DNA of 42,271 bases from Candidatus Aenigmatarchaeota archaeon (GTDB lineage Archaea; Aenigmatarchaeota; Aenigmatarchaeia; QMZP01; JACQNV01), in the NCBI GenBank assembly GCA_016202865.1, contig JACQNV010000010.1:1-42271 (forward strand), given 5' to 3'. The notes below the pieces were generated by a model. The model saw only the letters and a list, made by a program, of their open reading frames with translations. It searched no databases and was not told where the DNA came from. The position numbers and the translations under genes are program-made. Within the stretch, counting starts at the first letter, position 1. The number at the start of each line of letters is the position of its first letter. This document shows positions 5,001 through 37,016 of this stretch, piece by piece.

Positions 5001-6056
5001 AAGTCTTCAGCCCAGGACCAGTCAATAATAACATTGGCAGATAATATAGCTACCATAGCTGGCCAGATAATTTCCACTGCTCCAGTTCAGCTACTGGATG
5101 AAGCAACTGTGAAACAGCAAGCTTTGGATATAAGATCAGCAAGTTTAGACATACAAGGCCTAATTCCAGATTTGGTAAAGCAGGTTGATGTTACAGGCCA
5201 AGTTTTGGGAACAGCATGGTCAACAAAAGTCCAGGCAGACCAAGTATTTACAGAAGGTCCGGGCTCTTACACATTTGATTTCTCTTGCGGTGACAAGACA
5301 AATCCAGCAAAGGTCGATATTAAATACGAGACAGACTGTAGCAAATTACCACCACCAAGGGTTCCAAGCACAACAGCTGTCACAAGTCCTGTTGTAGGAT
5401 CAGCAACACCTGTTTCAACACCAGTTCCAACAACAGCAGCTGTCGCAATTAAATTAGGAAGCGATTACAACCAACCAACAGGAGTCCATCAAGGAATTGG
5501 AAAAGACAGCCAGCCAATAACAGATGGTTATGATAATAACAAGGAAGTTTTTGCTCTATTGACAAAACCAAATAATTCCGCGACTTGCGAAATAGACTGG
5601 GAACAAACAGGATTTATTTTATGGGTCCCATTGCAGGCAGTAGCTATAATTGGTACAAATCAAGATGTCGCAACTTACAATTTCACTGGAATTGTCACAG
5701 GAGGATTGGACGGCAAAAAAGATGTCAAGTTTAGATGCAAAGATTCTAACGGGACAATAACAGGAACAGCTATAGGCAGCATAAAAATCGACACAACTGA
5801 CCCAGTAGTATCCATAACCAAAATAGAAAAAACAAATGTTAACCCGCTACAAGTCAGGCTTGATTTGACAAGATCAGATGCAAATGGGATAAAAGCATGC
5901 GAAATCCAATGGCAATCAGGACATCCATTTGAGAAGATAGGGACAGCGATAAATTGGGTGCATGATTATAACATAACAGGAAGTTACCTTGTACAAGCAA
6001 GATGCTCAGATCCTGCAGGCAACTATGGTGTGACAAATAAGACCCATACATTATAA
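2067..6056 (+). CDS. Module 1 component B: very large Cys-rich surface protein with N-terminal signal peptide, central Gly/Ala-rich hydrophobic hairpin and C-terminal Ig-like domains (about 1329 aa)
   Basis: The long ORF runs 2046..6056. I prefer the ATG at 2067 (MRKGKIITIIAVMCAYLILAMPLGLA/QS is a Sec-type signal); the ATG at 2046 overlaps the stop of A1. A Cys module CGEDTDKDGNLCDRSLGESESTCCKDCGC lies at about 2941-3030. A Gly-zipper-like hydrophobic stretch lies at about 3570-3810. The C-terminus has Ig-like patterns (DTTDPVVSITKIE.., ARCSDPAGN). It is a paralogue of 9524..11635. Confidence 0.8.
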   Translation: MRKGKIITIIAVMCAYLILAMPLGLAQSIGVTFYSSDGTTKLPVTATLPTPHDLVTKTVSFLPDPTGTLQNVLVKYDIKQKNYPINRGFVWLCQNLEPSDCLAQKKEAIALQEFLSKERVWSDVGEITVTYPQKGNVFILLNLDVVTQTGSSQSVWVGIWDEITSLGANLNQFSVRTNRIAPESINLILEKDQFANLTAEFINNFYMIPRSWVKEVQIPKVEGNVVNIISGTQLDNLDSPQQFGEPHKRTATDRIQTKTLKKQFNLEFPIASLTGGDVVASPVTLFNNPKAVCGEDTDKDGNLCDRSLGESESTCCKDCGCDSLGSNFTCSVSQISDKDPGACVNSNEIKLVISDIDSSLVSCERSHEIEFNARITNPPGDLNVEEWWYNLDNKTKRSISCSKKLVQEYGCQLTIEPLDDCSEGVHVVKNNKLFANVRYSQNSVSKELSTPLPDFVLNQRSISQDQIREFIVAEFKTINNDLKEGVEQAKDLMKTCVKFLKYSLYAGLGAAAITAAAALYEGGKAINLWGGPNSLIGAKTIGGIIGGAAGFAAGGPVGAVSGAIFGSGVGSWLGPGSGPAPPTFSQGQTLTPTQLQALGAQPGSSFTNGGYQYTLSGNTVQTVSTPINAPGIGQQLTANHFALGFPQTGSVTWQAGNGQTNTYTMTNGVVTGIAPATATGVGIVPAGLSPAVPITSVSTPGVSPVTTKSGPYTPSGTILSFAEYLSFVDGTQIAPIIVNAGAQGLQHLALQFGQAFTGTASALSSASLNICQAASQIMDVYSRMANAQSFFVKFQLCLHNFDNLMGNGACDGGKGSTTSNALSASQSCMNLLQGCMTDLKQMSNEVKDFTTSLAAQQQNYANQLPSSRAVDFWVEELEPITGFPDGRGRVGNTCDQRSIKFGYTPTSVCYTPKITKTLKTHSDKVKSVDTESKNIVSRADTLIRYASDYTSTQPGAADIARNQTISVAKQIDTSSKLIKSSAQDQSIITLADNIATIAGQIISTAPVQLLDEATVKQQALDIRSASLDIQGLIPDLVKQVDVTGQVLGTAWSTKVQADQVFTEGPGSYTFDFSCGDKTNPAKVDIKYETDCSKLPPPRVPSTTAVTSPVVGSATPVSTPVPTTAAVAIKLGSDYNQPTGVHQGIGKDSQPITDGYDNNKEVFALLTKPNNSATCEIDWEQTGFILWVPLQAVAIIGTNQDVATYNFTGIVTGGLDGKKDVKFRCKDSNGTITGTAIGSIKIDTTDPVVSITKIEKTNVNPLQVRLDLTRSDANGIKACEIQWQSGHPFEKIGTAINWVHDYNITGSYLVQARCSDPAGNYGVTNKTHTL

Positions 6057-6130: not shown

Positions 6131-7528
6131 ATGTATTCCAAACATCCAAAACTTCTACTAGCCTTCAGCCTCTTCGGTTTATTCACATTTCTACTGTTAT
6201 TTGCTTCTTCCAGCCATGCCCTATTAACTGATGGTGTTGTAGTTGGCATACCGCCAAACGGTGCATGGAGAGCGACAGTTGAACTGCCTGATGATTACGG
6301 TGTGGTTGGCGGGATAACAGAATTTGTTGTGAAAACAGATTGCGACGACTGGTGCGATCTGCATTATGCAAAGGTTGTGACAGACTCCAAAAATCCAGTA
6401 CGCCTCCCTCTATACATATCAAGCCAAGGAAAGCAAATTGGGGATAAAAAAACATTCAGGATAGACATATCTGCTCTTGGCGTGACAAATAGCTATGATT
6501 ACGGTATCTGCGTAACTGGCTCAGCAAACACAAACAAAGGCTCTGTAGCAGATCCATGCAAAACAGTAAACTCTGAAAACGATGCCTTCAGCCTTTCAAT
6601 CTCACCTGATCCCGTATATGCTCAGCCAAATAGCCAAGCAGAATACACAATCTCTGTCTATTCCCAAGCTGTGATGGAAGTTGAAGTAAAATCGCTGCTA
6701 ACTGGGAAAACATGGAGCATCGTGACAGATCCAGACAAGAGGATTACAGCAACAGACAAATATCTGGTTGGTGACAATCCAGAACAAATAGAAGTAGAGG
6801 CGACAATCAAAGGCTGCACAAACTCCGATTTCTGCAAAAAGACAGCAACAGCGGCTTTAATTCCCACAAGCGCACCACCAAACCAAGCTGGCGGCGATTT
6901 CTCAATAAAAATAGACCCTGCATCAATAACAGGAAAAAAAGGCTTCCCGATAAGCTATTCCCTTGACATAACAAATCACAAGAACGAAAAATCTTATGAC
7001 ATTGAGATCATACTACCAGACAGCGGACTTGAAACAGACTTTAAGCCAATATATGGAAAATCAATTTCTGGCAAAGAAAATATAGCTTTCAAGGTAACGC
7101 CAACTGGAGATCAACAGTCATACACCTTCCAGATGAAAGTCACATCAAGCCAGGGAATAACAAAGCTCACTGATGCAACAATAAATGTTAATGAGATTGT
7201 AAACGATGCCATAAACACAGCTTCTGGCGGCGAGTTGGACGCAGAGGCTTTGAGAAAACTGAATGAATGGAAAGCTAAATATAAAGACTCTGATATAGGG
7301 ACACAAATAAAGGCAGCAGATGATCTGAATAAGCCCACAACTACACCAAAGGTTACAAGAACCCCAACACCTACAACACAGCCAAAACCAGAGACCAATA
7401 TAATGGATCTTCTACTTATTGTTGTCCCTGTGGCAGTTGTTATTGTCCTTCTACTGTTTATCCTAATTAAAAAAAGGGGCCATGTAGTTGAAGAAGGCGA
7501 AGAGGAAGGCGACTATAGCTGGAAATAG
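6131..7528 (+). CDS. Module 1 component C: secreted CARDB/NEW3-like (COG1470-like) surface protein with Thr/Pro stalk, C-terminal TM anchor and acidic tail, 465 aa
   Basis: Signal peptide MYSKHPKLLLAFSLFGLFTFLLLFASSSHA. Beta-rich repeats. Stalk TTTPKVTRTPTPTTQPKPE, then TM LLLIVVPVAVVIVLLLFILI, then KKRGHVVEEGEEEGDYSWK. It is a paralogue of 11626..13053 (GICV, PC, FCKK islands). Confidence 0.8.
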   Translation: MYSKHPKLLLAFSLFGLFTFLLLFASSSHALLTDGVVVGIPPNGAWRATVELPDDYGVVGGITEFVVKTDCDDWCDLHYAKVVTDSKNPVRLPLYISSQGKQIGDKKTFRIDISALGVTNSYDYGICVTGSANTNKGSVADPCKTVNSENDAFSLSISPDPVYAQPNSQAEYTISVYSQAVMEVEVKSLLTGKTWSIVTDPDKRITATDKYLVGDNPEQIEVEATIKGCTNSDFCKKTATAALIPTSAPPNQAGGDFSIKIDPASITGKKGFPISYSLDITNHKNEKSYDIEIILPDSGLETDFKPIYGKSISGKENIAFKVTPTGDQQSYTFQMKVTSSQGITKLTDATINVNEIVNDAINTASGGELDAEALRKLNEWKAKYKDSDIGTQIKAADDLNKPTTTPKVTRTPTPTTQPKPETNIMDLLLIVVPVAVVIVLLLFILIKKRGHVVEEGEEEGDYSWK

Positions 7529-7567
7529 GTCTGCAGACCTATTTCAACCCCTAACAGCTGGAAATAG
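7517..7567 (-). repeat. 39-nt palindromic insertion element, copy 1 (reverse orientation), with perfect 12-nt flanking direct repeat
   Basis: AGCTGGAAATAG occurs at 7517-7528 and again at 7556-7567, exactly 39 nt apart. Between them lies a perfect 24-nt palindrome GAAATAGGTCTGCAGACCTATTTC (7522-7545). Its reverse complement aligns with the copies at 12640..12687 and 15801..15848. The first direct repeat supplies the last 3 codons and the stop of 6131..7528. Confidence 0.75.
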
Positions 7568-7673: not shown

Positions 7674-9527
7674 ATGAAAGCACAAGCAGAAATAGTCATT
7701 GTTTTGGCAGCCTTGATACTTGTTATAACCCTTGTCACAATTGTTTTCCAGACAGGTCTAAACTCGCCTGACATAACAAATTTAGCCTCTGTTTTCAGAG
7801 ATGAGGTAAACAGAAGACTCTATGAAGGTTCCTTTGATATTGTAAAGACAATCAGTCTTCAGGGGGGTGTTTTAGACCCAGTACCCAACTCTGTAGATTT
7901 GGCTGGCACAAAGGTGGCTTATTGGCAAATGTGCCAGAACAAGGCCCTTCCAAGCCTTGCAGATATAAGGAAAAACATAAAATTGGGAATTGAACGGTTT
8001 GTTAGTAATCTCAATATAAACGATTTTCAGGGAAAAAAAGCCTCTCTGAGCCTGAAAGATTTAGATATCATAATAAGAAATCAGGATATTCTGGCTACAT
8101 TTACCTTGAACACAAATTTAGCAGGTTATGATCTAGATCCGCTATATGAAATAAGAATTCCAGCTAACTTGGCTGAAGTCTATAATTTTGCGTCTGATTT
8201 TGTTGATGATAATGTCCAGAAAAGGCACTTCGAGAGGTTTTTGTTGTCTCTTATGTTCAGGACAGATGAAAACATTCTGCCAACTTCCGGTGTGCTAACA
8301 AAATGCGGTCAAGCGATAATAAGAACATGGGATGATGTTCAAGAACAGATCGAGAAGCTGAGGGACTATTCTTTTGTTAACACTGTTTTTTGGGCAAGTG
8401 GAAATGACGAGTTCAAATATTATATACCAGCTCTCAATGGAAAAAAATATGACAGTCTGAAAATAAACTTTTTAGGCAGCGATCTTACAAGATCCAATCT
8501 TCAATCCTCAAGAAATCCAATATCTATAATAAACTCCAAAACCATCAGCATAGTGGCGCCATATTGCATAAAGGATTATAGGGTTGATTATTCACTAAAC
8601 TCTCCTGTGGCAGTTAAGGTGACAGGAACACCTGACTACAGTTTTAATTTTGCAATTCTACCGTTTATCGATAATAATAAAATAGGCAAGTGTTCTGGCC
8701 AGCAAGCCTTTTCATATGGCTCTGACATATGCACTGAGGCAAAATGTGATGTCAAATTATCTGTCCTTGATGTAAATGACAGACCAATACCAAATACACA
8801 AGTAAATTTCGGGGCTTGTTCAGTCGGAAAAACAGATTTCTCGGGACAGGTTAAAGGCAAAGTTCCGTGCGGAATTTCAGAACTTGTTGTAAGCAACCCA
8901 AAATACACATACTTTGCCGATGTTGTCAGTTCCAAATCAATTCCAGAAAAAATAAAACTTACTAAACTCCCTACAATAAATATCAACTTTTACAGGGCCG
9001 ATGTTATAAGAACACTATCTTATGTGCTTAATACACCTTCTTATGGAGAAATTGAAAGAGTAAATATCGGTCAGATTCAAGGCGACTACATTTTCGCAAA
9101 ATTCAAATCAAAGACGGCAAGTCCGTGGTCGCAGAGGGAATTTATTTTGGTTAATGCCGGTCTGAACAAATCAACTGTGACTAGCCAAGTTGTGGATTTC
9201 TTGTCTCCAGACAACTACACAGTTGAAGTTTCAACCATGAAAAGAGCAACCTACAAATATCAGGTTTGTGATACCGGTCTAGGCGGAACAGGAATAGCTA
9301 AAGACTGTAAGACAAAAAGCGCCCCGACAGTTTTTAACGGGAAAATGGTTTTTGATTTCGAAATAAAGGAAGGCACAAAAGACATCTACATAACATCCCT
9401 AATACCAGCGGAAAGCGAGACAAGGCAGGAACAGACAGATTTTGATTATACATCCAATATAGCTGAGGTGTCTAAATGTTTTGACCCTATATCCACAACA
9501 AAACCTAGAGAGGTTTGCACATTATGA
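7674..9527 (+). CDS. Module 2 component A: giant secreted protein with class III (pilin-like) signal peptide, 617 aa
   Basis: The N-terminus MKA/QAEIVIVLAALILVITLVTIVF has the same Q-x-E-I-V-I-V-L-A junction as A1. CarboxypepD_reg-like segment CDVKLSVLDVNDRPIPNTQVNFGACSVGKTDFSGQVKGKVPCGISELVVS. Its stop overlaps the B2 start (ATGA at 9524-9527). Confidence 0.8.
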   Translation: MKAQAEIVIVLAALILVITLVTIVFQTGLNSPDITNLASVFRDEVNRRLYEGSFDIVKTISLQGGVLDPVPNSVDLAGTKVAYWQMCQNKALPSLADIRKNIKLGIERFVSNLNINDFQGKKASLSLKDLDIIIRNQDILATFTLNTNLAGYDLDPLYEIRIPANLAEVYNFASDFVDDNVQKRHFERFLLSLMFRTDENILPTSGVLTKCGQAIIRTWDDVQEQIEKLRDYSFVNTVFWASGNDEFKYYIPALNGKKYDSLKINFLGSDLTRSNLQSSRNPISIINSKTISIVAPYCIKDYRVDYSLNSPVAVKVTGTPDYSFNFAILPFIDNNKIGKCSGQQAFSYGSDICTEAKCDVKLSVLDVNDRPIPNTQVNFGACSVGKTDFSGQVKGKVPCGISELVVSNPKYTYFADVVSSKSIPEKIKLTKLPTININFYRADVIRTLSYVLNTPSYGEIERVNIGQIQGDYIFAKFKSKTASPWSQREFILVNAGLNKSTVTSQVVDFLSPDNYTVEVSTMKRATYKYQVCDTGLGGTGIAKDCKTKSAPTVFNGKMVFDFEIKEGTKDIYITSLIPAESETRQEQTDFDYTSNIAEVSKCFDPISTTKPREVCTL

Positions 9528-11635
9528 GATTGAAAATATTGTCTTTGGTGTTGGTCTTGATAGTTTCCAGTTCAAGCTTAGCTATGGCAATCGAGATTGA
9601 CTTGGTTTATAACAATAATGCAGTCAGTTCAGCGGTTTTTGATAGGTCAAAATTTTTTGACAAAAGTCTTGTAGTAAACAATAACACTCTGCATATTTCA
9701 GTCTCAGGAAAAAACAATATTTCAATAAGTAGCATACTGCTATTCTTGTGTAAAGATAAAGCGCCAGATGCCTGCGACTTTTCAAACCCTATAGAATATG
9801 AGAGGTTTGTGGAAACCGATTTTTACCTGAATGACATATCCAATAACAACAGGGCAAATATACTTACATTGGTTAAGGCAGGTGAAAGCTGGATAGGTGC
9901 GTGGGATTCAATAGAAAATGGTGTTTGGAAAACAGGTGAAACAGACAATTTAAATCTATACCTAAAACATGATGTTGGTTCTGACTTGAAAGTCGCAATA
10001 GAGAGCCTAGGTTCCATACCAACAAACTCTGTGGAAAAAGCAGATTTTTCGGGCAAACCGCTTTATATTCTAGAAGGCAAGAAATCAATAGGCCTATTCA
10101 AAAAGGATAAAATTAATATAACATCATCTTTCTCTTCAAACAAAGTCGACTTGAAAAAAGGATATACATTTGTTTTCCCTACAGGCAACCAAATAAACAA
10201 CCCAATAACCCTATTCAACACCCCTGAGCTTTGCGGTAATTTGAAGTGTGATATTGGAGAAACCTTCAACACATGTTGGCAGGATTGCGCATGTTCAGCT
10301 GGACTAGTAAACACACCTCACGGTTGTGTCCCTGAAACAGATTTAAAATTGAACATTGAAAGCAAAAACAGGGGCGAATTTAACTGCTTTATTCCACCTG
10401 ATATACAAGCTTTCCAAAACATTGGCGGTTGTGTATTTACTGATGACTTTGAAATAAAATTGAAAATAAACAATACACCGACAACATATTTGCTAAACCC
10501 CCCATACTTCTATCTGGGTGGGCAATCTTACCCAGTGGCTGGGCGAGGAACATGCACAGAGATAGGCGATTCATATCAAATAGTTGAGAACAACTTTTCC
10601 TCTGCTCCAACAATAGTCTACAACGCCTCTGAATTTTCCTGTAACCTTTATTTTCCACCGCTTGAAAGAGATGAAGAGTTTAATGAAACCCTGGCCTTCT
10701 CCATGATATTCCCAATAACAACGAAAGAAGGAAACAAAACAGAAACACATGAACTGACAGCAACAACAGGATTGGACATATCAGGCACAAGCTTGAGGTT
10801 GGACTTGACAGATCTTCAAGATTTAGCCAAAAAGAAAGCAGAATTGGAAAAGCAACATAGGGAACTCAATAAATACCAGTATTGGCTTTCAATCGCCGAG
10901 CTAACATATGAGGCTGTGAAAATAGCCTTGGATGGTTGCTGCGCCTCTGTAATAGGATCTGTCTTCTGTTGTGGTGCAGTTACTTTCTGGACACCCGTTG
11001 TTTTTGGTTTGCATCTTGCTAATGCTGCGTATGGCATCTACATGGACAGAAAATACGATAAAAAAGTGGATGAGGTGAAAGAATATGCTCAAGGAAAAGT
11101 TCAAGAGTCTGCTATAGAAGCAAAAATAGAAATTGCGCAGAATATTCCGAACCTTGTATGGGTTAATGGAGCAAAATCAGGGCCTTATACAGGAACTGTT
11201 TGCGGCCAGGAAAATGTTGAGGTCTGGTATAACTTTGAATCCTTTGGCTGCTCTCAACGCGACGGGTTGTGGTTCAATTTCAATAATGTGACAAGGCCTC
11301 AATGCGATTGTCAGCAATTTGAATGGATAAGCGAGAATATGGAAGGGCCAATATGCGATTGTAATCAGGTATCGACATCATTCTCCTGGATCAAGAAAGA
11401 TATTAATGGAAAAGAGACAGGAATGAGAAAATATAATCAGAAAGGCGCGCATCTTTTATTGAATACAACAGCAGATAAACTGTTCAAAAAAAACAATATA
11501 CTCAATATAACAACATTCTGCTCAACAGGACAGATAGAAGCAATAGCTGAGGAAGCCGGTTTTAGTTTGGGTCCTGATATCGGAGATGTAACAGCAGAAT
11601 TCGAGTTGGTAAATTATAATTCAACATGTCAATAA
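9524..11635 (+). CDS. Module 2 component B: Cys-rich surface protein with signal peptide and central Cys-rich hydrophobic hairpin (about 703 aa)
   Basis: The ATG at 9524 overlaps the A2 stop; the track ORF starts at TTG 9515. Signal MRLKILSLVLVLIVSSSSLAMA. Cys module ITLFNTPELCGNLKCDIGETFNTCWQDCAC (about 10225-10295) parallels B1. A helix followed by the hydrophobic stretch CCASVIGSVFCCGAVTFWTPVVFGLHLANAAYGIYM lies at about 10880-11045. Confidence 0.8.
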   Translation: MRLKILSLVLVLIVSSSSLAMAIEIDLVYNNNAVSSAVFDRSKFFDKSLVVNNNTLHISVSGKNNISISSILLFLCKDKAPDACDFSNPIEYERFVETDFYLNDISNNNRANILTLVKAGESWIGAWDSIENGVWKTGETDNLNLYLKHDVGSDLKVAIESLGSIPTNSVEKADFSGKPLYILEGKKSIGLFKKDKINITSSFSSNKVDLKKGYTFVFPTGNQINNPITLFNTPELCGNLKCDIGETFNTCWQDCACSAGLVNTPHGCVPETDLKLNIESKNRGEFNCFIPPDIQAFQNIGGCVFTDDFEIKLKINNTPTTYLLNPPYFYLGGQSYPVAGRGTCTEIGDSYQIVENNFSSAPTIVYNASEFSCNLYFPPLERDEEFNETLAFSMIFPITTKEGNKTETHELTATTGLDISGTSLRLDLTDLQDLAKKKAELEKQHRELNKYQYWLSIAELTYEAVKIALDGCCASVIGSVFCCGAVTFWTPVVFGLHLANAAYGIYMDRKYDKKVDEVKEYAQGKVQESAIEAKIEIAQNIPNLVWVNGAKSGPYTGTVCGQENVEVWYNFESFGCSQRDGLWFNFNNVTRPQCDCQQFEWISENMEGPICDCNQVSTSFSWIKKDINGKETGMRKYNQKGAHLLLNTTADKLFKKNNILNITTFCSTGQIEAIAEEAGFSLGPDIGDVTAEFELVNYNSTCQ

Positions 11636-13053
11636 AATATTTAATCCCAATAACTGTAGTTTTCACACTTTTGATTAGCCTAACCTCTGTGCGAGCTTAC
11701 TTGGAGACAAACTTCTATTTTACAATGGCTCCAAATTCCACATATTGCCTATCCACAATATTGCCGTCAGATCTAGGTTTCCTTGAAGATGACAAATATA
11801 CAATGGCGATAGACAGCGGTTTTGAAACAAACATAAACTTTATAGAGACAGAAGCCGGAAAAAACAACGCAATAAAAGTCCCAATATGCTTCTCATCCAA
11901 GAACAAAAATAATGGCGAGTTTGCAGATTATAAAATCAGGACATCTGGAACAAAGTTCTCACCGTTTGAATGGAAAGGTGGAATTTGCGTATCCAATAAA
12001 ACACAAGACACCGACAAGGACTCATCAAAATATGAAAAAAATCCTTGCGAAATAGTGAACGGTCTGAGCGATCTGTTCTGGATGGATATTTTTCCAGAGC
12101 AAGCCATAACTGTTCCTGGACAAGAAGAGACTTTCTATATAGAAATCCTACCGTCTGTGGACATGGAGATAGATTTGACAATAAACAGCAACGCCGGCAT
12201 TAACATAAACAATTCTTATCTGCGATTAAAACAGTATGAAAGAAAGCAAATAGAGTTAAGGGTAAATCCAACCCTAAAAGGAGAGTATTATCTAAACGCA
12301 ACAGCAAAAGCCATATTCAACAGGCAGTATTGTGATCTGCCTTTCTGTAAAAAAGAGATCGGCGCGAAAATCCTTGTAGACGGCGGCAAAAAAATCCAGG
12401 GCTGGTCATTCCTTGTTCTCCCGCGTTTCTTATCTGCCTACAACCAAAAACCAATAGAATATGTGGCCATAATAGAAAACAATCAAGAGGACAGAAACTT
12501 CTCAATAGATTTGGGTTTGCCGCCAGGTTTATTATCTGACACGAAAAGTATTTCAGGCATTGTTAGAAAGAGCGAAAGAAAGGAGTTCAGATTTAACATA
12601 ACCTTTGCAGAAAATATCCCGCAAAAATACACAATTGATTTTACAGCAACAAGGGGACGAAATAGGTCTGCAGGCCTATTTCCAGCTGAGGGAGACACTG
12701 AAAGGGTTTTGACAGCTTTCCTATCTCTCTACGAATCTGCAGATGATTTAAAATCCCAATGGAATTCAATAAGGGACCAAGTAGACGACAAGACGCGTGC
12801 TGAAATAGATGATTTGGTGAACAAATATTTGATAGATCTCAAAGATGGGGGGTTCAGTCCAGATGATTATACAAAGATAAGAAACAAAATAAATGAAACA
12901 TCAACTAAAACGAAAACAGAAAAAACACCAGCATCCACAACAAGTCCAGCAAACCAATCAGAACAAATGCCTGTGGTTGTTCTTATCTTGATTCCAGTAG
13001 TCGTGATTATAATCCTTTTAGTTTTAATGTTCGCAAGAAGAAAGCGAGTTTAA
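11626..13053 (+). CDS. Module 2 component C: secreted CARDB/NEW3-like surface protein with C-terminal TM anchor, 475 aa, carrying an in-frame 39-nt insertion
   Basis: Signal MSIKYLIPITVVFTLLISLTSVRA. Stalk TKTKTEKTPASTTSPANQSEQ, then TM VVVLILIPVVVIIILLVLMF, then ARRKRV. Its start overlaps the B2 stop by 10 nt. It is a paralogue of C1. Confidence 0.8.
   Translation: MSIKYLIPITVVFTLLISLTSVRAYLETNFYFTMAPNSTYCLSTILPSDLGFLEDDKYTMAIDSGFETNINFIETEAGKNNAIKVPICFSSKNKNNGEFADYKIRTSGTKFSPFEWKGGICVSNKTQDTDKDSSKYEKNPCEIVNGLSDLFWMDIFPEQAITVPGQEETFYIEILPSVDMEIDLTINSNAGININNSYLRLKQYERKQIELRVNPTLKGEYYLNATAKAIFNRQYCDLPFCKKEIGAKILVDGGKKIQGWSFLVLPRFLSAYNQKPIEYVAIIENNQEDRNFSIDLGLPPGLLSDTKSISGIVRKSERKEFRFNITFAENIPQKYTIDFTATRGRNRSAGLFPAEGDTERVLTAFLSLYESADDLKSQWNSIRDQVDDKTRAEIDDLVNKYLIDLKDGGFSPDDYTKIRNKINETSTKTKTEKTPASTTSPANQSEQMPVVVLILIPVVVIIILLVLMFARRKRV
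12640..12687 (+). repeat. 39-nt palindromic insertion element, copy 2, in frame inside 11626..13053
   Basis: TTTACAGCA (12640-12648) and TTTCCAGCT (12679-12687) lie 39 nt apart. The hairpin is GAAATAGGTC-TGCA-GGCCTATTTC (12659-12682). It is translated as (FTA)TRGRNRSAGLFPA. Paralogue C1 lacks these residues. Confidence 0.7.
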
Positions 13054-15116: not shown

Positions 15117-15932
15117 TTACCTGTGCATTTCTATCCAATTTACAGCCAGTTTTATCAGCTTCTCAAATTGTGCGGGTTCTCTAAAATAATGATCAGCGCC
15201 TTCTACTACCTCGAGAGCCTTTTCACCTTTAAGGTTTTTCAGAATCTCCTTGCTCCCCTCAAGAGGAACCAGATCATCCTTGTCGCCATGTAAAATTAAT
15301 GTCGGAATGTCTATCTTTTTTGCCATCTCAATCCCGTTGTATTTCAGGTAATCCTGATAAAAAGTGTAGTTTAGCTTGCAATACTTGTTTGCGGAAATTA
15401 AGTTAACATAAACATAGCCATTTTCCTTGCATTTTTTCATGAGGTCTTTCAATTCCCCTGTGCATAGATCAAGACTTGCTACAGGGGAGCTCAAAACCAG
15501 ATTCTTTATCCTCTTGTCTTTGGTTGTGAGTATTGTAGCTACAAGGCCGCCCAAACTGGAACCGATAAGACTAACCCCTTTCTTCTCCACAAAGCCCAAC
15601 TTCAAGACAAAATCAATTGCGCACCTCAAGTCGTCTACATACTGTGTTATCGTTGTGTTTTCGAAAATACCTTCGCTCTCGCCAATATTTGAAAAGTCAA
15701 ATCTCAGGAAAACAAAACCTTTTTTTGTCAGAGCTTCTGCCAGTGCAAGAGGTTTCGGCCCGTCCTTACATCTACCTCGAAAACCATGTGCAAAGACAAC
15801 AGCTGGAAACAGATCAGCGGATCTGTTTCGTCCCTCATCAGCTCTGAACGGTCCTTTACCTTCTGGTGTGTGCAAAATCCCAACCAATTTCTGTCCTTTG
15901 CTGTTTTTGAAAATAATTTTTTGTTCTGGCAT
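15117..15932 (-). CDS. Alpha/beta-fold hydrolase (dienelactone hydrolase / S9-like esterase family), 271 aa, carrying an in-frame 39-nt insertion
   Basis: Nucleophile elbow GSSLGG, HGDKDDLVP and GADHYF motifs in Ser-Asp-His order. It is a paralogue of 16517..17290. Confidence 0.85.
   Translation of the reverse strand: MPEQKIIFKNSKGQKLVGILHTPEGKGPFRADEGRNRSADLFPAVVFAHGFRGRCKDGPKPLALAEALTKKGFVFLRFDFSNIGESEGIFENTTITQYVDDLRCAIDFVLKLGFVEKKGVSLIGSSLGGLVATILTTKDKRIKNLVLSSPVASLDLCTGELKDLMKKCKENGYVYVNLISANKYCKLNYTFYQDYLKYNGIEMAKKIDIPTLILHGDKDDLVPLEGSKEILKNLKGEKALEVVEGADHYFREPAQFEKLIKLAVNWIEMHR
15801..15848 (-). repeat. 39-nt palindromic insertion element, copy 3, in frame inside hydrolase 15117..15932
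   Basis: Plus strand AGCTGGAAA (15801-15809) and AGCTCTGAA (15840-15848) lie 39 nt apart. There is a perfect 10-bp stem with a 4-nt loop, GAAACAGATC-AGCG-GATCTGTTTC (15806-15829). It is translated on the minus strand as FRADEGRNRSADL, which is absent from the paralogous hydrolase. Confidence 0.75.
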
Positions 15933-15968: not shown

Positions 15969-16495
15969 TCAACGATTTGCGCTTTCTCCTCTTTGTGTAA
16001 TCCTTAAAAGATCTGATTCTGGATCGTAATAAACATCTCTCTCAAGTCCAGCTACGAATTCAGTATAACGGGCTTCCTGAATACTAATTCCGTGTTTTTC
16101 CAAACCGCTAATTATTTCTCTAAGATCTGGTTCCCATCCTGCATTGATAGTAGCCTTTGACATTCTTAAATAAAAACCATGTATTCTGGCCTCCTCAACT
16201 AATCTATCTACGACATTTCCAGTGCATATTTGATTAAAGTTGGTGGGCCCATATTCGCCATTGAAAGAATGCGCAAGCAAAGCCTCATCTCCATAATCCA
16301 AAATTACAGCGCTGCAAGAAGAGAAGCGTTTTGATGTCAATGGGCCTCTGTTGTAGCCAATTTCTCCCCAACCAACATCAACTGTTTGGGGGGGGGGGTA
16401 TGTGTATGTTCAAGTTCGTCACGCAAAGAGTGGCTTGGAGCAACTAACCCGTAGACCAATCCTAAACCTAAAACAAATGCTCTTAAAAGTTTCAT
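15969..16495 (-). pseudogene. Secreted hypothetical protein (about 175 aa if intact) split by a frameshift at a C11 (minus-strand) homopolymer
   Basis: The ATG at 16495 opens MKLLRAFVLGLGLVYGLVAPSHSLRDELEHTHTPPP.. (signal-peptide-like). This runs out of frame after the tract and stops at 16337-16339. The downstream frame (track ORF 15969..16340) is open back to 16409 and reads ..PPPQTVDVGWGEIGYNRGPLTSKRF... One extra C (12) or two fewer (9) would fuse the two frames. Confidence 0.6.
16388..16398. repeat. G11/C11 homopolymer tract
   Basis: I counted it directly: ctgttt-ggggggggggg-tatg. It is the longest homopolymer I noticed in the window, and it sits at the frame break of the gene above. 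Confidence 0.95.
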
Positions 16496-16516
16496 CTTTA
16501 AAATTGATAGTCAAAC

Positions 16517-17290
16517 TTATAACCACTTCTTGAACCAACCCAAAACAAGCTTTAACATTTCTTCCATTGCTTCTTTCCCCTCATATCCATGCTGTGTGTT
16601 TTTGATAATGTGAAGCTCCTTAGGCTGGTTTGCCAAATCAAAATAATCATCAATTTTCCTGCCGACCAAATCATCTTTCTCACCGTGGATTAACATTACT
16701 GGCACATGTATATTCTTGATGATTTCGGGGAAATTATAATTGTCAAAATCCTTCCAAAATTGCGGGCCGATTTTGACAGGTGGCTCGTCCTCATGTTTTA
16801 GGATAGAAATTCCATCTGGATTATAACCACCCCTATACTTTACTATTTTTGCAATCTCAACTCTTGGGTTTTTACAGGAACTCAGCAAAGTAATAGCCTT
16901 TATATTATGGTCACCGCGTGCAACTGTAACAGCTGTTCCAAAAGACATACCAATAATGCCAACCCTTTTTGTGTCGACAAATGGAAGCTTCCTCAGAATT
17001 TCGAGGGCAGAATTCAAATCAGAAACATGACTTGTCAAAGTTGATTTGGAAAAGTCGCCTTCGCTCTCGCCGCACCCAGTGAAGTCAAATTGCAAAGTCA
17101 CAAAACCGTTTTCACAAAGCGTTTTTGCAAGCACATCAAACATGTTTACATTGTCCTCATTTGTCTCATGCATGTGGTAGCCAAAACCGTGGGCTAGAAT
17201 TATGGCTGGAAATTTAGATTTACCAGGAGGAATATTCAAAATTCCAGCTAACTTTTCTCCTTTAGAATTATTGAACTGGATTTTGTGCAT
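16517..17290 (-). CDS. Alpha/beta-fold hydrolase, paralogue of 15117..15932, 257 aa
   Basis: GMSFGT nucleophile elbow, HGEKDDLV and NTQHGY motifs. The N-terminus MHKIQFNNSKGEKLAGIL parallels MPEQKIIFKNSKGQKLVGIL. It overlaps the upstream gene's 3' end by 23 nt. Confidence 0.85.
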   Translation of the reverse strand: MHKIQFNNSKGEKLAGILNIPPGKSKFPAIILAHGFGYHMHETNEDNVNMFDVLAKTLCENGFVTLQFDFTGCGESEGDFSKSTLTSHVSDLNSALEILRKLPFVDTKRVGIIGMSFGTAVTVARGDHNIKAITLLSSCKNPRVEIAKIVKYRGGYNPDGISILKHEDEPPVKIGPQFWKDFDNYNFPEIIKNIHVPVMLIHGEKDDLVGRKIDDYFDLANQPKELHIIKNTQHGYEGKEAMEEMLKLVLGWFKKWL

Positions 17291-24570: not shown

Positions 24571-25056
24571 TTAGTGTGCCAGTTTGTTTATTATTGCTGT
24601 GTAAAAGTCTGTGGAACAGTACCAGCCGCTGCCTATCATCTTGTCAATTATAGACTTTACCTCAGCTTTTGTAATTATCTTCTTTTTGAACAAAAGGAGG
24701 AGAAGGAACACAGAACCAGCATTGTCCACTTTTTCTATTGAAGTCAAGTTCCTAAGTTTCTGGTCGTCGGTTACAGCTGTCCCCTTTAATTTTTTGGCCA
24801 GTTCAAGAACCTCTAAATCAGCTTGCTCAACAACCTTTAGCTGACCTATATCACCTTCTTCCACTGAAAATAATTTTGAATCTACCAACATCTTTATGTA
24901 AACAGCTTCCTCAAAACCCCTTTTTATTCCTACATCTACAACCTCCCTATAAACTTTTGCCGGGATAATAAGTTGCGCATCTAGTTTTTCCAACTTCTCT
25001 AATGTTCTTGCTTTTCCAAGATAGATAAGTGTAACAGCATCAAAAACAAGTATCAT
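24571..25056 (-). CDS. PIN-domain toxin, DUF3368 / COG2405-like
   Basis: MILVFDAVTLIYLGKARTLEKLEKLDAQLIIPAKVYREVVD matches the typical DUF3368 N-terminus (D..PLIYL.K....LL..L....IIP..V..EV). It has a 4-nt ATGA overlap with the upstream antitoxin. Confidence 0.75.
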   Translation of the reverse strand: MILVFDAVTLIYLGKARTLEKLEKLDAQLIIPAKVYREVVDVGIKRGFEEAVYIKMLVDSKLFSVEEGDIGQLKVVEQADLEVLELAKKLKGTAVTDDQKLRNLTSIEKVDNAGSVFLLLLLFKKKIITKAEVKSIIDKMIGSGWYCSTDFYTAIINKLAH

Positions 25057-25358
25057 GACAATGCTCTCTCTATATCCTTTTCAAGGACATCTTTATCTTT
25101 GATCCAAACAGTTTTAGACTCTTTTACCTTTTCTGCAAATGACCAAACATCTAGACCAGCAAATTTTGCAGCAGCTAAAAATGTAAGTTTGCCCTTAGAT
25201 AGTAAATCAACAGCTGTTTTCTCTCTCCACTCTGTTAAGGATGTTTGGAGTAGCTTCCTGATGGCAGTTGATTTGTCCAAATTCTCAGATTCTATAAACT
25301 CCTCCAATTCCTTTTCCAATTCCACGGATAACCTTATAGACAAAGATGTTTCCTTCAT
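25053..25358 (-). CDS. UPF0175 (COG2886)-type antitoxin with N-terminal RHH-like segment (101 aa from the ATG at 25358)
   Basis: MKETSLSIRLSVELEKELEEFIE is RHH-like. AVDLLSKGKLTFLAAAKFAGLDVWSFAEKV matches the UPF0175 signature. The longer track ORF (to 25442) adds a non-protein-like leader. Confidence 0.7.
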   Translation of the reverse strand: MKETSLSIRLSVELEKELEEFIESENLDKSTAIRKLLQTSLTEWREKTAVDLLSKGKLTFLAAAKFAGLDVWSFAEKVKESKTVWIKDKDVLEKDIERALS

Positions 25359-25382
25359 ACAATGTATACTTTGTATTACTTG

Positions 25383-25390
25383 TATAAAAA
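25383..25390 (-). promoter_or_regulatory. Putative TATA box for the antitoxin-toxin operon
   Basis: The minus strand reads TTTTTATA 25-32 nt upstream of the ATG at 25358. Confidence 0.3.
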
Positions 25391-25534
25391 GATCGTGCCT
25401 TATAAATATAACAATGTTATATTGCTGAGCGCCAGACTTCACAATGTTAACTATTTAAATACACTCCCACAACATCTAACTAGAAACTTTTAATGTTTAT
25501 TAAACGTTTACAAAAATTTACTAATGCACTCTAT

Positions 25535-36861: not shown

Positions 36862-37016
36862 ATGCGACAAAACCGTGTATCAACCTGTTCAAGTCTCCTA
36901 CCTAAGTAGTGAGCAGTTATTCTAAGAATTGCAAGTGAAGATATTTAAAGGTTTGTATGGGCCGAGGTTTGCACTTTAACTCTTAAACTTTTAGTATTAG
37001 AAAGCGAATATAATGC

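Follow-up and report, generated by a model that had tools for sequence, protein, structure and literature searches.

A very short hairpin repeat inserted in frame in an archaeal hydrolase gene resembles the palindromic elements that colonise bacterial genes

In-frame palindromic repeats that colonise genes have been documented for Rickettsia and a few other bacteria, the chief example of such in-frame fusions being the Rickettsia palindromic elements, or RPEs (PMC10969869). Repetitive extragenic palindromes (REPs), surveyed in bacterial phyla only, consist of a stem of 5-13 bp, a loop of about 4-5 nt and a tag that is GTAG or CGTC, with the variants TGTC and CCTC; their copies are numerous and dispersed in a genome, mostly extragenic and often paired head to head (PMC3733652). 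In the CGTC-tagged REPs the stem measures 8-9 bp and opens with A/T pairs, the loop is 4-5 nt long, CCA forms the tail and a dedicated transposase is lacking (PMC3733652); CGTC and GTAG REPs are also found inside open reading frames (ORFs) as peptide-coding inserts, RPE-4 and RPE-6 of R. conorii included (Di Nocera et al. 2013, PMC3733652). For archaea, a 2024 review lists MITEs, the miniature transposable elements with inverted repeats, only from Sulfolobus, Halobacterium, Haloquadratum, Desulfurococcus and a handful of further genomes (PMC10969869), and a 2025 survey predicted REP-like hairpins in archaeal intergenic regions only (PMC12306157). Here, we describe a 39-nt hairpin element found at positions 15801-15839, on the minus strand, of a 42,271-bp archaeal contig, where it lies in frame in an alpha/beta-hydrolase gene. 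An earlier note on this DNA, which had drawn attention to the element from the sequence, stated that its author was aware of no archaeal equivalent; likewise, no in-frame archaeal palindromic repeat was found in the literature examined, which is not proof that none exists.

The window, by which we mean the whole stretch of DNA analysed, is an entire NCBI contig labelled "MAG: Candidatus Aenigmarchaeota archaeon", the Aenigmarchaeota being a phylum of the archaeal kingdom Nanobdellati (DPANN). Its genes include those for L10/P0, L1 and L11, the SUF operon and a row of large secreted proteins; the archaeal/eukaryotic-type insertion domain of L10/P0, together with the contig label, identifies the genome as archaeal. 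The window was compared with loci of relatives, for a total of about 210 kb of DNA. Among these, loci L019 and L027 represent GCA_053529675.1, the sister genome (92% identity with the window across a concatenation of five proteins), and loci L007 and L021 belong to one genome. The identity matrix places the window and L019 in one group, separate from another in which L021 stands beside the pair L022 and L024.

The hydrolase gene (15117-15932, minus strand) encodes a 271-aa protein with matches to the Pfam families Hydrolase_4, Abhydrolase_1 and Peptidase_S9, and residues 32-44 of this protein, DEGRNRSADLFPA, correspond to the element (copy 3 in the order of the window; covariance-model score 54.9 bits). 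On the minus strand the element reads GATGAGGGAC-GAAACAGATC-CGCT-GATCTGTTTC-CAGCT. As the earlier note had pointed out, positions 15806-15829 form a hairpin, with a loop of 4 nt and a flawless stem of 10 bp (GAAACAGATC/GATCTGTTTC), whose fold as DNA amounts to -8.8 kcal/mol (z-score -3.3). The longer segment 15801-15848, AGCTGGAAACAGATCAGCGGATCTGTTTCGTCCCTCATCAGCTCTGAA, additionally comprises the host codons Phe-Arg-Ala, TTCAGAGCT (15840-15848, minus strand), which lie directly upstream of the insert in gene direction.

Evidence that these 39 nt are an insertion comes from hydrolase genes in which they are missing. The earlier note had used as empty site the paralogous hydrolase gene of the window (16517-17290, minus strand), which carries no element and reads ..GKSKFPAIILAHGF.. 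where the host gene reads ..GKGPFRADEGRNRSADLFPAVVFAHGF..; the two are indeed colinear once 13 codons are removed. However, the paralogue is a proxy only, and its L007 orthologue holds two other in-frame copies. The real empty sites are those of the orthologues, of which three are available: L010 (homologue P0001; ..CCTTTCAG|AGCAGTTGT..), L007 (homologue P0002; ..TTCAG|GTCTGTTGT..) and, in the sister genome, L027, with a protein of 258 aa (CCTTTCAGAGCA|GTTGTT). All three lack exactly the 13 codons, so that the in-frame insertion proposed in the earlier note is borne out. At E <= 1e-10, 125 hydrolase homologues were retrieved; the nearest two, with 85% and 77% identity, are shorter by 12-13 residues and read GPFR-AVVF and GPFR-SVVF at the insert site, and the spacing from GxLxxP to HG is 11-15 residues in 80 homologues versus 25 in the window hydrolase. 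The 13-residue peptide motif was found in 0 of 240 fetched proteins, 120 of them hydrolase homologues. These data refute the converse scenario, which the earlier note had itself raised, of an ancestral 13-residue loop later deleted in the paralogue and in other lineages: no evidence in its favour was found, the three orthologues, including the one of the 92%-identical sister, and all 120 homologues are without the loop, and unrelated genes as well as non-coding DNA contain this DNA unit too. Three independent read-set assemblies (SRR12113383 to SRR12113385) have the filled hydrolase allele in identical form, and the insert is therefore not an assembly artefact. Look-ups of neighbouring proteins of the window, aimed at an empty allele within the same population, led to the same short contigs only.

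Two further copies, also noticed earlier as the intervals 7517-7567 and 12640-12687, exist in the window, the element proper spanning 7517-7555 and 12649-12687. Copy 2 (12649-12687, plus strand; 59.9 bits) is inserted in frame in ORF 11626-13053, where it translates to TRGRNRSAGLFPA and follows the host codons Phe-Thr-Ala, TTTACAGCA (12640-12648, plus strand). Copy 1 (7517-7555, minus strand; 57.7 bits) is antisense to ORF 6131-7528 and contains the last three codons and the TAG stop of this ORF (7517-7528). These 12 nt are the first copy of a direct repeat, AGCTGGAAATAG, of which the second (7556-7567, plus strand) starts 39 nt after the first; this second repeat is the native gene end (Ser-Trp-Lys-stop), which by coincidence matches the element's 3' end letter for letter. 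The hairpins of copies 1 and 2 (7522-7545 and 12659-12682) share their flanks with copy 3. A degenerate hairpin pattern has three matches in the window versus 0.06 expected, a number reached in 0 of 100 shuffles, and AGCTGGAAA occurs five times versus 0.78 expected. With a covariance model, the three copies score 55-60 bits (E ~1e-13 to 1e-14) and the next different site 12 bits. Pattern counts, shuffles and covariance-model scores thus show that the three-copy pattern is not due to chance.

In a common orientation the unit can be written NYWAR-GGGAY-GAAAYAGRTC-NNNN-GAYCTRTTTC-CAKCY, i.e., a semi-conserved 5-nt lead, GGGAY, a 9-10 bp stem starting with GAAA, a loop, the complementary arm and a CCA-containing tail, CCA-GCT or CCA-ACT. 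Across the family, the loop measures 3-4 nt or 16-17 nt (4 nt in seven aligned copies), copies are 27, 37, 39 or 51-52 nt long, and the hairpins fold as DNA with -5.6 to -10.1 kcal/mol. In all seven aligned copies the stem starts with AAA/TTT and TTT is followed by CCA, while the bases 5' of the stem are GACG in five and GATG or GTTG in the others.

Insertion of this element has been repeated, lineage-specific and polymorphic from site to site, with the stem kept intact. In addition to the hydrolase site, the site in ORF 11626-13053 is filled in the window, and the 13 codons are missing from the L007 and L027 orthologues (in L027, GATTTCTCTGCA|AGAGGTGAT). Both copies are younger than the split from the 92%-identical sister genome. 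At the site of copy 1, the L007 gene ends with ..TGGAAATAA, the native end, the element being missing, and the sister locus L027 holds a 37-nt variant.

The earlier note had also considered that further copies might not exist anywhere; relatives do carry them, at positions where the window has none. Two in-frame copies (..TKGRNMSADIFPS.. and ..FMGRNRSADLFPS..) lie in the L007 counterpart of the paralogous hydrolase gene, and the window, L010 and L027 have none there. NifU carries a 27-nt in-frame copy in L019 only (KL-RVETDKVSFGKQILI-QEI), three other genomes reading KL-RNGKE-IQEI or a close variant. In the rpl1 leader, a copy of 52 nt in L019 and one of the 51-nt long-loop form in L021 are located exactly at the position of the agaataac/tgctcact junction of the window (36908-36923, minus strand), which is empty, as it is in L022, L024 and L026. 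These two rpl1-leader copies are ~94% identical, and their flanks ~70-78% identical, by our count. The pattern of filled and empty rpl1 sites, set against the grouping in the identity matrix, implies at least two events at one site: independent insertions, precise losses or exchange between lineages.

In L021, a 39-nt copy is located between sufB and sufD, and 51-nt long-loop copies lie between nifU and an ABC-ATPase gene and 3' of a histidine-kinase gene. The sufB-sufD site of L022 reads CCTTTTCTTTTGG, the element being missing. Weaker variants of the element are found in L019 beside the rpl1-leader and NifU copies, a short variant in L010 directly 3' of the hydrolase gene, and one more copy in L003, a 1-kb contig that came from a scan of JGI metagenomes. 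The L010 variant belongs to an insertion of about 80 nt (5570-5680), made up of a short hairpin variant and a half copy, at the 3' end of the hydrolase gene, whose C-terminus is now ..TKNRN* and whose ancestral last codons, ..AHK*, persist just downstream. Overall, there are three copies in the 42 kb of the window, six in 36.5 kb of L007/L021 and five in 40 kb of L019/L027, all singletons. About 16 copies were found in about 125 kb from the three or four genomes with the family, versus none in 84 kb of four other relatives (L022, L024, L025 and L026). They are located in coding regions, untranslated regions and intergenic spacers, and the sets of filled sites differ between close relatives. 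A CRISPR repeat was considered and rejected, the copies being solitary and 3-5 kb apart inside genes.

The hairpin has been maintained during this spread. Across the seven aligned copies, 100% of stem cells are paired and four pairs have changed on both sides (U-A to C-G or G-C, A-U to U-A, G-C to U-A and G-C to A-U). The observed covariation score was reached in 0 of 500 column shuffles, and sliding one arm by a single column lowers pairing to 44-49%, larger slides lowering it still further. When the sequences are compared in the frame that is used, third codon positions pair with third codon positions; as a consequence, most compensatory changes are synonymous (AAT/AAC, AGG/AGA, GAC/GAT, CTA/CTG). 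Moreover, no stop interrupts frame +1 in any of the four 39-nt coding copies, where it reads GRNRSADLFPA, and TGA closes it in all three 39-nt non-coding copies. Coding inserts measure 27 or 39 nt, and non-coding copies 37, 39, 51 or 52 nt.

With 13 codons that are open in the gene frame and that fall between strands beta-2 and beta-3, the hydrolase insert is expected to be translated (..GRNRSADLFPA) as a 13-residue surface loop. The catalytic residues Ser126, Asp219 and His248 are intact, and the triad columns are invariant in the alignment. In an AlphaFold2 model of the hydrolase (mean predicted local distance difference test score, pLDDT, 90.7), the insert is the sole badly modelled stretch, with residues 34-38 below 50, and forms a low-confidence surface loop between strands 15-21 and 42-48 (beta-2 and beta-3), a surface loop being what the earlier note had anticipated. 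From sequence and model, then, the insert most likely is a tolerated surface loop that does not disable the enzyme.

One could ask whether the insert is instead removed or skipped during expression, either as an archaeal bulge-helix-bulge mini-intron or by ribosomal bypassing between GCU and GCU, 39 nt apart. The flanking codons are identical or synonymous (GCT/GCT in the hydrolase, GCA/GCT in ORF 11626-13053) with a stable hairpin between them, and deleting exactly 39 nt restores the ancestral protein. Short hairpin inserts of about 27-55 nt in coding sequence, with matching flanking codons and a mobile-element-like distribution, are indeed a feature of the mitochondrial 'byp' elements and of bypassing in phage T4 gene 60. 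The archaeal inserts differ from these in being open in frame, with no stop or unassigned codon, nor any obvious stall codon, after the putative take-off codon. In addition, RNA folds of five copies with 36-42 nt of flank on each side yielded a plain hairpin, without two 3-nt bulges separated by a 4-bp helix, and the coding inserts, at 27 or 39 nt, are all divisible by three and free of in-frame stops, while every 39-nt non-coding copy is stopped in that same frame, a pattern to be expected only if the inserts are translated. We therefore regard removal or skipping as very improbable.

Other RNA-level readings were discarded. Rfam covariance models gave no match, be it at gathering thresholds or at E<=1. 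A hammerhead-like string, CUGAUGAGGGACGAAAC, in the hydrolase copy is regarded as a coincidence, as CUGAUGA is found in that copy only, its stem II would have one base pair and Rfam returned nothing; C/D-box-like UGAUGA/CUGA motifs are likewise unique to that copy. A reading as a selenocysteine insertion sequence (SECIS), with TGA followed by a hairpin in copy 1 and L003, was rejected since these copies are non-coding or antisense.

The sequences that flank the element deserve separate consideration, as the earlier note had taken them for a decayed target-site duplication. This part of its proposal does not hold: AGCTCTGAA represents the ancestral host codons Phe-Arg-Ala, which are found at the empty orthologous sites as TTCAGAGCA (L010, L027) or TTCAGGTCT (L007), and AGCTGGAAA is the element's own conserved 3' end (TTTCCAGCT, Phe-Pro-Ala). 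With host sequence in its upstream half and element sequence in its downstream half, the flanking direct repeat is not a duplication. Nevertheless, all three insertions in the window are found immediately 3' of host sequence that resembles the element end, (CTA)TTTCCAGCT: the left flanks are TTCAGAGCT (6/9 match), TTTACAGCA (7/9; ancestral form in L027, TTCTCTGCA) and CTATTTCCAGCT, the native Ser-Trp-Lys-stop gene end (12/12). With equal base frequencies, a random 9-mer would match at 6/9 positions in ~1% of cases and at 7/9 in ~0.1%, and because such values are rarely reached by chance, the resemblance points to a target preference or to microhomology.

Taken together, we consider it likely that 15801-15839 was recently inserted as a copy of a non-autonomous repeat with one hairpin, very short and of the REP or RPE kind, whose family has spread in a small clade of Aenigmarchaeota. 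The way of movement is the less certain part of this proposal. The element would be copied or moved in trans as single-stranded hairpin DNA, most likely by a hairpin-recognising HUH/Y1 enzyme of the IS200/IS605 type, and would land just 3' of host sequence similar to its own 3' end (TTTCCAGCT) without leaving a true target-site duplication; within genes, only those insertions that keep the host frame open would survive. In the IS200/IS605 family, guide bases 5' of the hairpin recognise both the flanking target tetranucleotide and the terminal tetranucleotide of the right end (PMC6006769), and of the Y1 subclasses, archaea are reported to have that of IS200-type TnpA only (PMC6006769). Because the guide bases read both the flank and the terminal tetranucleotide, a one-hairpin element would be expected to insert beside a copy of its own end, which fits the window, where AGCT, AGCA and AGCT flank an element that itself terminates in AGCT.

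Several observations weigh against this explanation. No transposase gene was found among the window proteins or the Pfam-annotated genes of the fetched loci, nor was any tnpA or RAYT (REP-associated tyrosine transposase) gene seen in the ~210 kb, and RAYT-type enzymes are reported from bacteria only (PMC6006769). The AGCT flank rule of the window genome is not seen in the L007, L021 and L003 copies, whose flanks resemble the 3' end weakly or with a shift of 3 nt. In public data, the family has very few members. A first pattern had zero matches in the 185,579 species genomes of GTDB, a looser one had seven, all in unrelated bacteria and about the number expected by chance, JGI metagenomes yielded one true relative (L003), and viral contigs nothing or one chance match without hairpin. 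Copy 1 and its sister counterpart differ by a symmetric shortening of the stem by one base pair, which could mean that selection acts on the hairpin in place, for a host function rather than pure selfishness. Lastly, all five coding copies are sense-oriented and four of them share one frame though four to six frames are open, a bias that simple avoidance of stop codons does not explain.

The same element might also have spread without any transposase, by copy-choice, i.e., microhomology-mediated template switching or very short-patch gene conversion, in which a nascent strand whose end resembles TTYNNAGCT pairs wrongly beside a copy already present, replicates the hairpin unit from it and then switches back to the template that it had left. 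We see this as possible but clearly less probable. It is in keeping with a microhomology longer than a 4-nt cleavage site (6/9, 7/9 and 12/12), with the host origin of the upstream repeat and the element origin of the downstream one, with partial or half copies and tail duplications such as those of L010 and L022, and with the transposase that was not found. However, the L007 and L021 copies show no convincing flank homology, the same 51-nt variant is present at an identical site in two non-sister genomes with ~3 nt of microhomology, and the conserved GGGAY and CCA flanks, together with a strictly kept stem, resemble the recognition site of a protein.

Another explanation is that the hairpin is chiefly an RNA or DNA signal useful to the host, such as a terminator or a stabiliser of transcript 3' ends, a regulatory hairpin in leaders or a site bound by a protein; on this view, the coding copies would be incidental, or might even serve a function as peptide loops. 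Of 12 independent copies, about 10 are on the sense strand of the nearest gene, the sites occupied include gene ends, spacers within operons and the rpl1 leader, a symmetric change between the sister genomes has left the copy 1 stem paired, and one and the same peptide is encoded by all four 39-nt coding copies. A host regulatory hairpin hence fits the non-coding copies, but leaves unexplained the insertions at loop positions in unrelated proteins (two hydrolases, a surface protein and NifU). Since, in addition, presence of the element is lineage-specific and incongruent with phylogeny, the family is missing from four close relatives in the same syntenic region and Rfam returned zero matches even at E<=1, a primary role of this type appears unlikely to us.

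The orientation of the copies follows the gene strand and not one replication strand, the three window copies being on the minus, plus and minus strands within 8 kb. Selection could account for this; more speculatively, so could insertion into the single-stranded non-template strand during transcription. Along the latter lines, the family could represent an archaeal class of ultra-short mobile DNA that spreads without a RAYT-type enzyme, is coupled to the transcribed or sense strand and chooses its targets by likeness to its own 3' end. Such a class would explain the repeated use of the same sites in separate lineages, the sense orientation of coding copies and the one frame shared by the four 39-nt copies; we nonetheless hold it to be rather improbable, and in a more radical variant the inserts may even be skipped or removed during expression.

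How does the element compare with the described classes? By architecture, the nearest described kind appears to be the bacterial CGTC-tagged REP. Like it, the archaeal unit, GACG-AAACAGATC-loop-GATCTGTTT-CCA, is a single short hairpin with an A/T-first stem, a loop of the 4-nt type, an unpaired CCA tail and a conserved tag at the other foot, and it is dispersed, strain-variable and inserted in frame in ORFs or supplies a stop at gene ends. The size of stem and loop agrees (9-10 bp, with a 4-nt loop in seven copies and variants of 3 or 16-17 nt), and the CCA tail and A/T first pairs are found in all seven aligned copies. The tag is different: GACG, GATG or GTTG is present instead, and CGTC is found only on the opposite strand, at the wrong end with respect to the CCA tail. 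The copies are furthermore singletons rather than head-to-head dimers, the family includes 51-nt long-loop and 27-nt variants, and the host is a DPANN archaeon. We would thus describe the element as one that probably works like a REP or an RPE, and, given its tag, do not file it as a member.

The parallel with Rickettsia that the earlier note had drawn holds as far as it goes, although intragenic palindromic repeats are known in bacteria beyond Rickettsia (PMC3733652). Like RPEs, the archaeal element forms in-frame inserts in unrelated housekeeping genes, encodes a conserved peptide that is tolerated at the surface and has filled and empty orthologues (PMC10969869). The two differ in length, classic RPEs being ~100-150 bp long versus 27-52 nt here, and their hosts belong to different domains of life. 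With IS200/IS605 the element shares a hairpin of ~20-25 nt, conserved bases 5' of its foot and insertion without target-site duplication, but it has one hairpin rather than two ends and the flank rule fails in the L007 and L021 copies. Finally, it does not qualify as a classical MITE, as its inverted repeat is internal, its flanks are asymmetric and neither a true target-site duplication nor a parent insertion sequence was seen. An in-frame insert in an intact gene, the element is an archaeal counterpart of the short palindromic repeats found within genes of Rickettsia and some other bacteria.

Found in a DPANN archaeon whose genome is small, the locus provides a clean example that can be dated, combining filled and empty sister sites, recurrent use of one site and compensatory stem changes. 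It thereby offers a system for asking how hairpin repeats move in archaea, which lack known RAYTs, and a natural experiment on the tolerance of loops of 9-13 residues in an alpha/beta hydrolase and in NifU. It is also a warning for annotation and assembly at such repeats: a Logan short-read contig of the same organism (L018) starts at about window position 7538, inside the copy 1 hairpin, so that at least one short-read contig breaks at these repeats, consistent with a repeat that breaks de Bruijn graph assemblies.

Some of the sequences examined alongside the element have features of their own. In L021, the intergenic copies at 8510-8617 and 11641-11757 are nested in an outer inverted repeat, CCTTT(T)CTT ... 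GARTTAAGAAA(A)GG, which may be a longer composite form of ~62-74 nt or reflect insertion into the loop of a pre-existing terminator-like hairpin. At the contig end of L003 (1-112), the 37-nt sequence AGAAAACATGCAATTGTTTCCAGATCATAACCTTTTC occurs twice, 74 nt apart, with the element copy directly after the second repeat; this sequence contains TTGTTTCCAGAT, which is similar to the element 3' end, and could be the edge of a CRISPR-like array. A high-GC, terminator-like hairpin from two samples (L001 6300-6345 and L002 2745-2790), GAAACAGACC-ACTA-GGTCTGTTTCCAGCT, resembles the arms and tail of the element; located right after a stop codon of an unrelated genome and overlapping a second palindrome, it is probably a chance match.

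Apart from the element, the window and its relatives differ in other respects. In the window, a gene on the minus strand (15969-16499) is broken by a run of 11 G (C on the coding strand) at 16382-16392, so that its N-terminal part, MKLLRAFVLGLGL..., and the remainder, ..VDVGWGEIGYNRGPL.., are in different frames, while L007 has the intact gene (9470-9985; 171 aa); the cause is a sequencing error in the homopolymer or else a genuine frameshift, which may be phase-variable. The SufB of L024 (4967-8716) has 1249 aa, with intein and LAGLIDADG domains, versus ~470 aa in the other relatives and the window. At 24571-25442, the window has a toxin-antitoxin-like pair, PIN/DUF3368 and UPF0175, that is also present in L022, and a glycosyltransferase gene takes its place in L019 and L021, which makes for another small presence/absence difference between these genomes.

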